Part shown: piece after piece, positions 3,001 to 8,460 of the stretch
How positions within the stretch are numbered: position 1 is the stretch's first letter
Layout of the letters: each line of letters begins with the position of its first letter
From: a virus
Taxonomy: Duplodnaviria; Heunggongvirae; Uroviricota; Caudoviricetes
Strand: one strand, 5' to 3'
DNA length: 8,460 nucleotides
Virus record (IMG/VR): IMGVR_UViG_2693429524_000007
Program-made: the position numbers

Positions 3001-6000
3001 GTGCCCGCTGGGTGTTGTCTGTTGTGCGTCGGGATCTCGGTTTTGATGACAGTCACGTTGTGACAATGCCGGAACTGTGCTGGTGGCTGATTCGTAATGA
3101 CCTGGCGGATGCCTTACCGGAAAGTGCAGCCCGTAAGGCACTGAGATTACCGAAGCCTGTTGTGCCGTCTGTCACCCGGGAAAGTGACCTTGTGCCTTCG
3201 GTTCCTGCCACCAGCATCATCCAGGATAAGGCGAAAAAGGTGCTGGCGCTGAAAGTGGATCCGGAGTCGCCGGAGTCTTTTATGTTACGCCCAAAACGTC
3301 GCCGCTGGGTTAATGAAAAGTACACACGCTGGGTTAAGACACAGCCGTGTGCATGTTGTGGAAAGCCTGCTGATGATCCCCACCACCTGATAGGCCACGG
3401 TCAGGGGGGAATGGGTACAAAAGCGCATGACCTCTTTGTGTTGCCTTTGTGCAGAAAGCATCACGACGAGCTGCATGCGGATACTGTGGCATTTGAAGAG
3501 AAGTATGGTTCCCAGCTGGAGCTGATATTTCGTTTTATCGATCGTGCGCTGGCAATAGGCGTACTGGCGTAAGTGGAGAACGAGCATGAACCTTGAAGCC
3601 TTACCGAAATATTACTCCCCGAAATCTCCAAAACTGAGCGATGACGCACCGGCGACAGGCTCGGGTGGTTTAACAATTACGGATGTAATGGCTGCGCAGG
3701 GGATGGTGCAGTCGAAAGCACCGCTTGGGTTTGCTTTATTCCTGGCAAAAGTTGGCGTTCAGGACCCTCAGTTTGCGATTGAAGGTCTGCTCAATTACGC
3801 GATGGCACTGGATAACCCGACATTGAACAAATTGAGTGAAGAAATCCGGTTACAGATCATCCCTTACCTTGTGAATTTTGCCTTTGCTGATTATTCCAGG
3901 TCTGCGGCAAGTAAGGCTCGCTGTGAGCATTGTGCTGGTACTGGATTTCATAATGTATTGCGCGAAGTGGTGAAACACTCCAGAAGCGGGGAATCTGTTA
4001 TCAAGGAAGAGTGGGTGAAGGAACTATGTCAGCATTGCCATGGTAAGGGAGAAGTCAGCACAGCGTGCAGAGGGTGTAAGGGTAAAGGTATTGTCCTGGA
4101 TGAAAAAAGAACCCGGCTTCATGGTGTGCCTGTTTATAAGATTTGTGGGCGTTGCAATGGCAACCGGTTTAGCCGTTTACCAACCACACTGGCGCGGCAT
4201 CATGTCCAGAAACTGGTACCGGACCTGACGGATTATCAGTGGTACAAAGGATATGCAGACGTTATTAATAAACTGGTTACAAAGTGCTGGCAGGAAGAAG
4301 CGTATGCTGAATCGCAATTGAGAAAAGTGACAAGATAGATAATTTTCGCCGAAGATGTCGACGTGATACTTGCATTTTTCAAAAAATATGGATAAGATTT
4401 TCTCAACGATGGGCCTTGTATGTCTACCGTTGGTAAATGTCAAAAACCTGCCGCTGAGCGGGTTTTTTTGTGCCTGATGTCTCATGAAACTATGAAATGG
4501 ATTGGTGCGTTAAACATTTTTTCTTATTATCTTTTAGATTTTGGAGAGATGGTTAACGTCTGTATTCCAGAAACTCGATGGTTATTTAATAAATTAGTTT
4601 CAATGATGCTTCTAGGTTATGACTGTAATGAAAAAGGTATTAATAGCAGCGATAGGTTTTTGTTTAGTTGGTTGTGCTGGTATGAAATTACCTGAGTATT
4701 CGCAAGTTAAAGCAAGTCCGTATTATACAGATTGCCGTGCGTTTGCCATGGATGTTTATAAAAATGATGGATACAGCAAAATTGCGAAAACTACTATCCT
4801 TAGCATGGATGATGTGAAAGCTAGATATATTGTGACAGGGTGTGTAGTTGCTATGGGGAAAAACACTGTAGAGGAAATCAAAGCTGATCTCTCTGCTAAA
4901 GGGAGTTCTTTTGGGCTTATCAGTGGAGCTTGTTCTAGTGCGGCATGTCGGGTTGATGTAGAGCAGCAAATGAACGCTTATGTACTTGGTAGTTATTATG
5001 CTGCAAATAAAAAATTCCCGGATAAAATGAAAGCAGAGTTTTAAGCAAACCTTGTTTTCGATTATATGTCGAAGATAAATGTTAGTAACGGCATAATAAG
5101 TAAATATATAGCTGTGATAGCAACCCGCCACTGAGCGGGTTTTTTGTGCCCGTAAACTTGGTGCAGTACAGTAAACGCGCTGGTGGTTGTGAATACCGGT
5201 CTTTCAGCTTGCTGGCTTTTTCGACAAGAGTTATTGGTGTGTCACGTTAACCGGAAAAAGGAAAGTTTGAGAAACGCGATCTGGCACAGGCGGTTATTAA
5301 TGCTGCCTACTTGGTGGCCTGTGCAGATGGTGAATGTGAGGCTTCCTAGAAAGCGAAGATCGAACAGGTACTGCGTAATCAGCCTGCGCTGTCCGCGTTT
5401 ACGTCAGAAATTAATGCGATTAGCGCAACCATTATCGGTCAGCTGGATACGAACTTTAAAATTGGTCGTCGTGCGGCGTTACGTGAGATCGAGGATGTGA
5501 AACACGATACGCGTGAAGCGGAAGATGTGCTGGATGTGGCGGTGGCCATTGCGGAGGCAGACGGCGAAATTGAGCCGGAAGAGCGCAAGGTGCTGGAAGA
5601 GATTGCCGGTGTTCTGGGTCTTCGTCTGGAGAATCACCTGTGACGGTAAAACTGCGCCTGGCTGTGGCTGCACTCCTGCTGTTTCTGGTGGTGATGGTGG
5701 ATTTCACCAGCAGAATCATGTCGGTGCTGGCGGATGGGGTGCTGGTCTGCGGCATTGTGGTATTGCTGTAGCCGGTGATAAAAAGAAACAGCCTGCATAA
5801 TGCTTGATTTTTTTATTTGCTGTTTATTAAAAATACTACTGCATGGTGAATCCCCCTGTGCGGAGGGGCAATCAGCAAGTAGGTATATGTGATAATCGCG
5901 GATTCAGGTGCTGATACTGAATTCACCGGGAGGCACCCGGCACCATGCAAGAAAAAGAATGTGCATGCAAAAATGCCCCTCTCCGGAGGGGCATTTTTTA

Positions 6001-8460
6001 TGGGTAAAAAATGCCCGAATGGGTTCGGGCAATAGCATGAGATACTGATATTGTTGTGTTGTTATCGTGTGGATTTTAACCAGGGTTTATCAGGCTGCGC
6101 AACTGCGTGGCCTTCTTCATTTCTTGGGCTGTAGTCCCCGTGTGTCATTCAGGCTTCCGGACTACAGCCCACTCCATATCTGATTTAATACACTATCCCG
6201 GCCGGGAGGAATAATGACATTTAAACATTATGATGTTGTCAGGGCGGCGTCGCCGTCAGACCTTGCGGAAAAGCTGACACACAAACTGAAAGAGGGCTGG
6301 CAGCCGTTTGGTAGTCCGGTGGCCATAACCCCTTATACCCTGATGCAGGCGATTACAGCAGAAGGTGATGTGGTGGTCAGTGGTGCAACTGAGCCGGATT
6401 GGTACTACGTCATCGTACTGGCCGGGCAGTCCAATGCCATGGCTTACGGTGAAGGGCTTCCGCTGCCGGATTCATACGATGCTCCGGATCCGCGCATTAA
6501 ACAGCTGGCGCGCCGCAGTACAGTGACGCCGGGTGGGGCTGCCTGCAGATATAACGATATTATTCCGGCCGACCACTGCCTGCATGATGTGCAGGATATG
6601 AGTACGCTGAATCATCCGAAGGCAGACCTGAGCAAAGGGCAGTACGGCTGTGTCGGCCAGGGGTTACATATTGCCAAAAAACTGCTCCCGTATATCCCGA
6701 ATAACGCGGGGATCCTGCTGGTACCATGCTGTCGTGGTGGTTCGGCATTTACCCAGGGCGCGGAGGGGACATTCAGTGCGGACACGGGGGCCAGCCAGGA
6801 TTCGGCGCGCTGGGGGGTGGGTAAACCGTTATATCAGGACCTGATTGCGCGCACCAAAGCTGCATTACAGAAGAACCCGAAAAATGTGTTGCTGGCGGTG
6901 TGCTGGATGCAGGGAGAGTTTGACATGAGCGCCGCCACCCACGCACAGCAACCTGCGCTGTTTACAGCCATGCTGACACAGTTTCGTGCTGACCTCTCCG
7001 TGTTTAACGCGCAGTGCCATGGTGGCAGTGCTGCAGATGTGCCGTGGATTTGTGGTGACACGACGTATTACTGGAAAAATACATACGCTACCCAGTACGA
7101 CACCGTGTACGGCGGGTATAAAAACAGGGAGAGTGAGGGCGTTTATTTTGTGCCCTTCATGACAGACGGTAACGGCGTCAATACCGCCACTAACGCGCCG
7201 GCAGAAGATCCGGATATTCCGGCATCAGGATATTACGGTGCGGCATCGAGAACGAATGGAAACCAGGTATCATCAAACCGCCCGACACATTTCAGTTCAT
7301 GGGCGCGCAGGAGCATTATTCCGGATCGTCTGGCAACCGCTATTCTGAACGCAGCCGGGCGCACCTCAGCCTTCATCAGTGGTAAGGCACCGGAAATCAA
7401 ACCCTCGCCCGGCGGCAACACGCCATCGGGTCCGTCTGCAGATACGTCCGTTCGCACAATCTCCCTGCTGCCGGCAGCCGGAGAGGCTGCTGCGCAGGGC
7501 TGGAGCATTAAGGATGGCGGAATTCAGTTGTCAGATGGTGTATTTAAGATCACCAAGCAGAGCAATAAAACCTGGTCCCTGACGCATCCGGTGGATGACG
7601 CAATTACCCTGCTGACACAGGGCGGCAGACTGACCTGTAAGTTCCGCCTGTCAGGCGCACTGACCAACAATCAGTTCGGGCTGGGGATTTATCTGTATAC
7701 GGATGCTCCCGTTCCTGATGGTGTGGCGATGACGGGTACCGGTAATCCGTTCCTGATGTCGTACTTCACTCAGACCACTGACGGCAGAGTGAATCTGATG
7801 CATCACAGGAAAGCCGGAAACACGAAGCTGGGGGAGTTCGGCGATTACGGTAACGACTGGCAGACGCTGGAGCTGGTGTTCACCGCCGGCAGTGCCACGG
7901 TTACTCCGAAACTGAATGGAGTGGCTGGCCCGGCATTCCAGGTTATAAAAGACAGTCTGACACTGGGACTGAATGCGCTGACGCTGACGGATGTTACAAA
8001 AATGCAGCGTATGGCGTTGAGATAGAAAGTCTGATGCTGGAGATAAATGCACCGGCAGCATAATAAAAAAAGCCAGCGACTGACCTGAAAAAGAAGACGC
8101 TGGCTAAAAGGCCTTATATGTTTGTAGAGACTTATTTTTCACAGACAGCAATGATGCCTGTCAATATATTATCAATATGCGGATTGTTTCAGTTACAGAT
8201 GCCTTATTAAGGAAAAAAACAGCCAGCACTGACTTTCGGTGGAGAGGTGCTGGCTCAAAAGGATAGATGTACTTCACATGTTGCTTCTATATGGCAGTAC
8301 ATTTTCTGACAGACAGTGACGGATGTTGTCAAGATATTGTGTCATTTATAACCTGAATCAGGGGAGGCCGGAATGTTATCTGGCATTTTTAGCAGAGCCT
8401 GAATGCCATAATCACGGCTCCCGGCGTTGGCCGTCAGTGGGTGACACTGGCGGCTTTTTT

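Follow-up and report, generated by a model that had tools for sequence, protein, structure and literature searches.

Convergent pairs of small RNA (sRNA) genes, situated between a moron coding sequence and a conserved downstream open reading frame (ORF), were described in prophages of the O157 strain Sakai and in phage 933W by Tree et al. 2014 (PMC4104026); these are EcOnc06/AgvB2 in Sp17, AgvB1 in Sp10, and EcOnc27/AsxR in Sp5 and 933W. The AgvB1 and AgvB2 transcripts of Sp10 and Sp17 (60 nt, with primary 5′ ends) were mapped by RNA ligase-mediated rapid amplification of cDNA ends and northern blotting, and AgvB was found to bind Hfq and to sponge the R1 seed of the sRNA GcvB through a CACAACA motif (PMC4104026). 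AgvB and its relatives are prophage "anti-sRNAs", which reprogram host sRNA networks and help O157 to compete in bovine rectal mucus, and deletion of both AgvB copies lowers fitness in this respect (PMC4104026). Here we analyse an 8,460-nt stretch of a caudoviral genome, IMG/VR record IMGVR_UViG_2693429524_000007 (hereafter the window; coordinates are those of the presented + strand), and in particular the interval upstream of its nanS-p gene, which encodes a prophage sialate O-acetylesterase. We conclude that this interval is very probably the published convergent sRNA cassette, placed between the pR′ moron slot and the nanS-p/lysis genes. The core of the finding is therefore a rediscovery of an already known arrangement, the STnc100/AgvB cassette. 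To this we add two smaller elements, of which we found no description and which are apparently undescribed: a terminator-like hairpin (T3) overlapping the AgvB promoter, and a covarying stem-loop (H4) in the nanS-p leader. Recognition of the cassette matters for annotation, since its RNA genes were unannotated in all of the genome records examined.

The rightward member of the pair is an STnc100-family sRNA gene (5815-6005, + strand), a homologue of EcOnc06 and EcOnc27 and a relative of PasD. In an Rfam scan that covered the whole window with permissive settings, it matched family RF02076 over the complete model (1-206 of 206), scoring 146.2 bits (gathering score 47). The terminal stem of the Rfam model aligns to hairpin T1 (5969-5999, + strand), which is the terminator of this gene. 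T1 consists of a perfect 13-bp stem, AAAAATGCCCCTC/GAGGGGCATTTTT (5969-5981 / 5986-5998), including the core GCCCCTC/GAGGGGC (5975-5981 / 5986-5992), a TCCG loop and a T6 tail (5994-5999); its predicted RNA fold has an energy of -21.5 kcal/mol (z = -5.3 relative to shuffled sequences). Because T1 is preceded by an A-tract and followed by a T-tract, it is terminator-like on both strands and can stop minus-strand read-through coming from AgvB. In each of the eight loci scanned, an STnc100-type RNA precedes nanS-p, and it is equally placed in 933W, in Sakai Sp10 and Sp17, and in all of the upstream types distinguished below. The Sakai Sp17 homologue, EcOnc06, was reported with an Hfq peak and a length of approx. 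177 nt on northern blots, and a homologue was noted "5′ ECs1961", i.e. upstream of the Sp10 esterase (PMC4104026); given an assumed offset of approx. 100 nt in the published coordinates, EcOnc06 would correspond to the 3′ portion of this copy of STnc100. Within the sRNA, the first internal hairpin, AATCCCCCTGTGCGGAGGGGCA (5849-5870), is 86% identical to the terminator hairpin, AATGCCCCTCTCCGGAGGGGCA (5972-5993), and represents an internal duplication.

The leftward member is the gene of the anti-GcvB sponge AgvB (6006-6067, minus strand, start at 6067). It matched Rfam family RF02702 with 96.5 bits (gathering score 56) along the entire model (1-62 of 62), with 62/62 consensus identity, running from 6067 to 6006. 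A leftward transcript arising between 6030 and 6214 had been deduced in an earlier, sequence-only reading of this DNA; since the Rfam match identifies it as AgvB, which is divergent from the nanS-p leader, that transcript exists and has a name. The 5′ end of AgvB, CGAUAACAACACAACAAUAUC, includes CACAACA, the consensus of GcvB R1 targets, and it is this motif in the 5′ variable region that distinguishes AgvB from AsxR and EcOnc03 (PMC4104026). The AsxR model scored only 43 at the AgvB site, which is below its gathering score of 63. The position of the gene is that expected of the family, i.e. Q, rightward STnc100, leftward AgvB and nanS-p in this order, with a Rho-independent terminator at the 3′ end of the sRNA.

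This terminator, T2 (6006-6031, minus strand), has an 8-bp stem, TGCCCGAA/TTCGGGCA (6012-6019 / 6024-6031), followed by U6, which appears on the + strand as A6 (6006-6011), and a fold energy of -12.6 kcal/mol (z = -4.1 versus shuffles). The T1 and T2 ends of the two converging sRNAs are separated by six bases, and the hairpins are joined by a symmetric linker, GGGCATTTTTTA/TAAAAAATGCCC (5989-6000 / 6005-6016), which was recovered by the repeat scan as previously proposed. The sequence-only reading had also proposed a pair of face-to-face terminators with hairpins at 5965-5982 and 6003-6020. Both hairpins are real and both carry the required T-runs (T6 of T1 on the + strand, that of T2 on the minus strand); their positions had been set 10 nt too low and are corrected here to 5975-5992 and 6013-6030.

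A putative AgvB promoter is located at 6073-6102 on the minus strand, and comprises a -35 hexamer TTGCGC (6102-6097), an 18-nt spacer, a -10 hexamer TAAAAT (6078-6073) and the +1 position at 6067. The gap between the -10 hexamer and +1, read on the minus strand and anchored on the Rfam-placed 5′ end of the RNA, is 5 nt. We infer this placement, since the -35 hexamer matches the consensus only in TTG; it lies below the threshold of the promoter scan.

The closest described relatives of this locus are the cassettes of the Sakai prophages. The gene order, the orientation and the back-to-back terminators are alike, and in both cases the cassette sits between moron/TerB-like genes and the esterase ORF. 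Over positions 5800-6230, a few substitutions and one or two short insertions or deletions (indels) separate Sp10 and Sp17 from the window; for Sp17, the whole 430-nt block differs by five substitutions and one 1-nt indel. The AgvB gene is identical to the window throughout its length in both Sp10 and Sp17. The upstream genes differ, namely a low-GC lipoprotein-like moron and a TerB pseudogene in the window, versus tRNAs and TerB, or stx, in the Sakai and Shiga toxin (Stx) phage cassettes. Compared with its relatives of the Sakai type, the window has a weaker T3 U-tract, and nothing essential differs. In phage 933W the order is stx2B, STnc100, AsxR, T3, H4 and nanS-p, AsxR there replacing AgvB. 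A similar architecture was also observed in L310, a metagenome contig, where a different minus-strand sRNA with the terminator GCACGCAATGGGCGTGC and a distinct 5′ region lies approx. 330 nt upstream of T3; it may be a hitherto uncharacterised anti-sRNA of this group.

A 2026 preprint from the Storz laboratory (Zhu, Shabalina & Storz; 10.64898/2026.05.13.724894) associates STnc100 and the related PasD sRNAs with the surroundings of prophage sialate esterase genes. The RNAs treated there resemble the one in the window in being structured sRNAs of approx. 190 nt with a 3′ intrinsic terminator, located beside an esterase gene, in many cases with AgvB or AsxR close by; the window copy scores as STnc100 proper. 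Neither T3 nor H4 is described in the parts of the preprint consulted. The locus may also be compared with the late control region of lambda (pR′, tR′, Q; PMC8065619), which it resembles in having Q upstream, tR′-like terminators next, and further terminators before the lysis genes. In contrast to the lambda 6S RNA and the StxS RNA of Stx phages, T1 and T2 belong to independent sRNA genes located approx. 1.5 kb past pR′, and not to a pR′ leader.

The terminator scan revealed a third intrinsic-terminator-like hairpin, T3 (6092-6123, stem-loop 6092-6113, + strand). This is the + strand terminator nearest to nanS-p, and it had been overlooked in the sequence-only reading. T3 has the form AGGCTGCGC-AACT-GCGTGGCCT, with a 9-bp GC-rich stem, the tail TTCTTCATTTC and a fold energy of -14.4 kcal/mol (z = -4.0 versus shuffles). 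T1, T2 and T3 all combine a GC-rich stem with a U-run on the transcribed strand, the U-run of T3 being interrupted. The -35 hexamer of AgvB, on the other strand, coincides with the loop and 5′ arm of T3. A scan of the collection anchored on the T3 core yielded approx. 60 distinct phage variants, in nearly all of which the tail is a cleaner TTTTTTC or TTTTTCG; T3 is kept in upstream types A, B and C and in related lineages, and the AgvB-free loci of type D contain a similar hairpin, with a T8 tail, that follows an STnc100-like body. T3 is thus conserved and, on the + strand, forms a second terminator between T1 and nanS-p; it occurs in every member of this cassette, and its sequence is shared with the anti-sRNA promoter. 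In the window itself the U-tract (6114-6123) is degenerate, compared with TTTTTTCATTTC in the commonest allele of the same type and TTTTTCG in other types. Since nearly all relatives have a cleaner tail, the window copy is a weakened allele, which may pass more polymerase toward nanS-p.

Between T3 and nanS-p lies H4 (6124-6172, + strand), a stem-loop in the nanS-p leader with 13 perfect base pairs and a pyrimidine-rich loop of 21 nt. Its arms, GGGCTGTAGTCC/GGACTACAGCCC (6125-6137 / 6159-6171), are 100% complementary and end 43 nt before the nanS-p start codon (ATG at 6214). An inverted repeat had been noted here previously, at 6126-6170; the position was right, while the arms are 13 bp long rather than 12. 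The predicted fold of H4 has an energy of -28.0 kcal/mol (z = -5.6), and none of 200 shuffled sequences was as stable. Of shuffled windows, 2% contained a perfect inverted repeat of 13 bp or more with a spacer of 3-60 nt. No curated Rfam family gave a match overlapping positions 6068-6213 at E ≤ 1 with permissive filters.

Upstream regions for comparison were gathered in two ways, neither of which selects on H4, i.e. by anchoring on the NanS-p N-terminus (80 loci) and on the T3 core. Among the 80 NanS-p-anchored loci, 45 contain both T3 and H4 (types A, B and C), 25 belong to type D, and nine belong to type E, whose leaders are an unrelated AT-rich sequence with neither T3 nor H4. A scan of genome contigs with the NanS-p N-terminus returned only 14 loci and added little. 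The module composed of T3, H4 and the leader matched 285 phage records, the names of which are almost all those of Stx-converting, Escherichia, Enterobacteria and Shigella phages; among the matches listed, most have no annotated feature at this position.

The sequence of the H4 stem varies while its pairing is kept. It is GCGGGCTGCGGTTC/GGACCGTGGCCCGC in type C, GTGGGCTAAGGTTC/GAACCTGTAGCCCGC in locus L182 and ACTGGCAGTTGTCT/AGACTTCAGTCAGT in locus L122, and even the divergent L310 has an 8-bp stem, TGGCTGCT/GGCAGTCA, with a 6-nt loop at an equal distance past T3. In an alignment of 32 distinct T3-anchored variants, seven of the 14 base pairs are altered on both sides and are still paired, whereas slid controls gave zero such pairs at all six registers. 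The two helices of H4 are paired in 94% and 83% of the alignment cells, the observed covariation was reached by none of 500 shuffles, and RNAalifold recovers the stem. Many of the changes convert G-C to G·U on the + strand, which on the minus strand are A·C mismatches, and the commonest top pair is U·G (19/32 sequences). The fold of the + strand is more stable than that of the minus strand in eight of ten variants (-29.8 vs -20.7 kcal/mol in type C). The loop measures 6, 11, 21, 24, 25 or 27-28 nt, depending on the lineage. Pairing on one strand is thus kept by covariation, as is expected of a structured cis-acting RNA, within a small number of independent lineages.

Based on the compensatory and G·U changes, the bias of folding toward the + strand and the loop lengths of 6-28 nt, H4 is probably an RNA structure rather than an operator, as far as can be judged from comparison of the sequences. 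The sequence-only reading had left the choice between a stem-loop of the 5′ untranslated region and an operator for a dimeric regulator; the comparative data fit the former and do not fit the latter. The operator would serve nanS-p or the divergent AgvB promoter, and it is true that the arms in the window are perfectly palindromic and lie upstream of a gene start and of a divergent promoter, at -58 to -105 from the AgvB start. Nevertheless, the spacing of the arms ranges from 6 to 28 bp among lineages, which fixed dimer geometry cannot accommodate, and the centre-to-centre distance of 34 bp in the window is itself atypical for a dimer. The arm sequences are not constant and vary by compensatory substitutions, many of which place G·T in the position of G-C and so break the dyad symmetry of the DNA while keeping the pairing of the RNA. 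Nor does the window contain a second exact half-site, the near-matches (576-587 and 659-670) being in or next to ORFs. Conserved half-sites with fixed spacing across homologous loci were not found at H4, and we regard an operator as highly improbable.

A role in translation was also considered, in which H4 represses nanS-p by means of its loop (CUUCC, UGUCAU), which would reach 40-60 nt downstream to pair, in a pseudoknot-like manner, with the start codon and its Shine-Dalgarno sequence. There is an imperfect 18-nt complementarity between 6143-6160 and 6202-6219, and the loop motif TG[C/T]CAT matches or wobbles with ATG[G/A]CA in 35 of the 43 distinct sequences that have it, an association that is explicable by linkage. 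The remaining eight of the 43 have a C·A mismatch, the motif is missing in types C and F, and the loop of L310 is only 6 nt long. The energies of loop-ribosome-binding site duplexes did not exceed those of shuffled loops in any of seven lineages (a fraction of 0.18-0.85 of the shuffles being at least as good). With shuffled loops doing as well and co-variation incomplete, pairing of the loop with the Shine-Dalgarno sequence or AUG is unsupported, and a translational repressor of this kind is very unlikely. It is easier, though still unlikely, to regard H4 as a neutral relic, e.g. a decayed tandem terminator or a recombination-boundary sequence without present function. Such a relic would agree with the loss or truncation of H4 in L132 and L249, the divergence of L174, L161 and L162 inside the loop, its absence from type E, the one or two internal mismatches of the type B stems and the moderately T-rich stretch that follows them. 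However, compensatory changes that keep the pairing across differing stems and loop lengths are unexpected for a relic, and the hairpin is equally spaced after T3 even in the divergent L310.

A structural role of H4 is favoured, since conservation is confined to the stem and the loop varies in both sequence and length. We tentatively suggest that, as such a structure, H4 might be a barrier to, or a boundary for, decay or processing of RNA on the read-through late transcript, shielding or delimiting the mRNA to one side of it. Stem-loops that stabilise or direct the processing of mRNA leaders include the 5′ stem-loop of ompA and the RNase III sites of phage T7. By analogy, H4 would resemble these elements in being a stable hairpin whose pairs covary and which is situated in an untranslated leader between cistrons of a long phage transcript; the stem is kept and the loop is not. 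Unlike them, H4 has a stem of 13-14 bp, which is shorter than classical RNase III substrates, and an atypically large loop; nor is it at a known 5′ end. A more far-reaching proposal, which we consider rather doubtful, is that T3 and H4 together form an undescribed conserved cis-acting RNA module of the late operons of Stx and other lambdoid phages, controlling the processing, stability or translation of the nanS-p/lysis mRNA. T3 and H4 could, for instance, protect this mRNA once the read-through RNA has been cleaved within its stretch complementary to AgvB or AsxR. If this were true, the module could influence the timing of lysis and toxin release. In the literature search no published nanS-p leader element or promoter was found.

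Several observations weigh against this interpretation of the interval. The sequences used for covariation form approx. six lineages, related by descent and recombination, so that independent compensatory events are few. The long stem, i.e. the 3′ arm of H4, is lost in L132 and L249, and the second long hairpin of type D is no more stable than shuffled sequences (z = -0.3) and was therefore not counted as an H4 homologue. Because H4 is absent or lost in some lineages, it is not essential for nanS-p. The U-tract of T3 is interrupted in the window (UUCUUCAUUUC), and termination is possibly poor. Read-through by Q and termination at T1 and T3 are inferred by analogy from knowledge of the family.

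Other possible roles of the leader were examined and rejected. H4 is not a terminator on either strand, as it has no U-run (the tails are ACTCCATATCTG on the + strand and AGAAATGAAGAA on the minus strand) and was not called by the terminator scan. A small ORF across H4 is likewise not supported, as the candidates, a + strand GTG ORF (approx. 37 codons) and ATG ORFs on the minus strand, do not keep their frame between types A and B; the loop indels, which are not multiples of three, also contradict it. As a target of STnc100 or AgvB, the nanS-p leader performed no better than expected, with 32% and 85% of dinucleotide shuffles, respectively, doing at least as well.

Some further features of H4 and its surroundings were recorded. 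In the Sakai Sp10 copy (L216, 2574-2590, corresponding to 6159-6171 of the window) and in L015, a 4-nt CAGC duplication in the 3′ arm shifts the pairing, which reduces the perfect stem to 11 bp and the fold energy to -24.6 kcal/mol, versus -28.0 kcal/mol in the window. In the IMG/VR loci L174, L161 and L162, and in L330, homology of the nanS-p leader ends inside the H4 loop (after ...CTTCTGCC) and is followed by unrelated sequence, which points to a rearrangement with its breakpoint inside the hairpin. Upstream of the Dam gene, near-copies of the H4 arm were detected, namely GGACTACAGCCA (576-587, one mismatch) and GGGCTGTACTTC (659-670, two mismatches), together with a 15-nt match of 93% to the arm and loop at 572-586. 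Four such matches were seen versus 0.42 expected; by our own estimate, 8.4 kb should contain approx. three pairs of 15-mers that differ at no more than one position, and the near-copies are probably due to chance. Closer to nanS-p, a small hairpin, UCCC-GGCC-GGGA (6196-6209, + strand), has a 3′ arm that overlaps the Shine-Dalgarno sequence GGGAGG (6204-6209); it is paired in 88% of the alignment, with little variation, and is hence weakly informative.

The arrangement of the terminators suggests how the cassette may operate within the late operon. In the lysogen, unmodified polymerase travelling rightward would stop first at the tR′-like terminators (4445-4468 and 5122-5145) and, beyond these, at T1 and T3, so that nanS-p and the lysis genes would be silent while both sRNAs are still made. 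After induction, polymerase modified by Q would leave pR′ and read through all of the terminators, including T1 and T3, and nanS-p would be expressed as a late gene without a recognisable promoter of its own. On the late transcript produced by read-through, H4 might then act in cis as a structured RNA, which is only a guess. No promoter-like site was found on the + strand in the scan of positions 5000-6600, and manual reading of the AgvB-nanS-p interval gave hexamers with only 3/6 matches. Read-through by Q after induction agrees with the biology of late operons and with the behaviour of nanS-p (z1466), which is reported to be among the most strongly induced late genes (PMC8065619).

According to the sequence-only reading, the terminators are extra gates that could decide when the esterase is made. 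In its strong form this would mean that the hairpins are mainly devices of the late operon for timing nanS-p and that the sRNAs are by-products of termination. The tandem of T1 and T3 on the + strand ahead of nanS-p speaks for such a role, as does the precedent of the pR′-tR′ RNA repressing Stx1, which arises by termination (PMC8065619). On the other hand, a primary 5′ end of its own has been mapped for AgvB, whose function in trans was shown by experiment (PMC4104026), T2 is directed away from nanS-p and is thus unable to gate it, and the two tR′-like terminators are already present upstream. The hairpins are first of all the 3′ ends of the STnc100-family and AgvB genes of a known cassette. 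Since they exist as terminators of sRNA genes, gating is a reasonable, though secondary, function, and we consider it unlikely to be their main one.

H4 is found directly ahead of nanS-p in most members of the cassette, that of the Stx2 phage 933W among them. Should H4 influence how stable the late mRNA is or how it is translated, one more control point would lie between the toxin genes and the lysis genes. Such a control point, if it exists, would be of interest to specialists in Stx phages and would not represent a new principle.

The block 5800-6260 is widespread. Copies that are 100% identical occur in many E. coli chromosomes, and matches were found in 2,845 of 5,426 complete genomes, at up to 13 places per genome; in total the E. 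coli genomic copies number roughly 8,000. In an annotated relative the gene order is Q, TerB pseudogene, DUF3927, esterase, holin, lysozyme and Rz. The window as a whole represents the early-to-late junction of a lambdoid prophage, as indicated by the Pfam assignments of its genes: Dam (707-1360), RusA (1357-1746), KilA-N (1733-2575), DUF968 (2577-3572) and the late antiterminator Q (3586-4338, + strand; PF03589, Antiterm, E = 9e-54). An "antitermination protein" is annotated at the position matching Q in the relative locus L001, and Q would in this context be the source of the terminator-resistant transcription that enters the region. The first late gene past the sRNA cassette is nanS-p (6214-8025, + strand), whose product of 603 aa has the DUF1737, SASA and DUF6645 domains characteristic of the NanS-p architecture; identical genomic copies of the gene are annotated as "SASA family carbohydrate esterase".

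The segment between Q and the cassette contains an intact DUF3927 ORF (5640-5771, 43 aa; Pfam), preceded by a TerB-family frame (5183-5640) that is broken by in-frame stops. The latter is probably a pseudogene, and a 100% identical relative carries the label "tellurite resistance TerB family protein, internal stop". Just past Q, at 4350-4410, pR′-like sites (TTGCAT, 17 nt, TAAGAT) were recognised by eye, although the promoter scan did not call them. A short terminated pR′ RNA, analogous to 6S or StxS, may be made there, as the first of two terminator copies lies approx. 40 nt downstream; no Rfam family matched this region. The two copies, AACCTGCCGCTGAGCGGGTTTTTT (4445-4468) and AACCCGCCACTGAGCGGGTTTTTT (5122-5145), are nearly identical and bracket a low-GC insert (4445-5146), with a GC content of 0.36 versus 0.52 in the flanks. 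The insert includes an ORF of 141 aa (4619-5044) with a lipoprotein-type signal (LVGC) and no Pfam match, and it looks like a moron placed at tR′ with duplication of the terminator.

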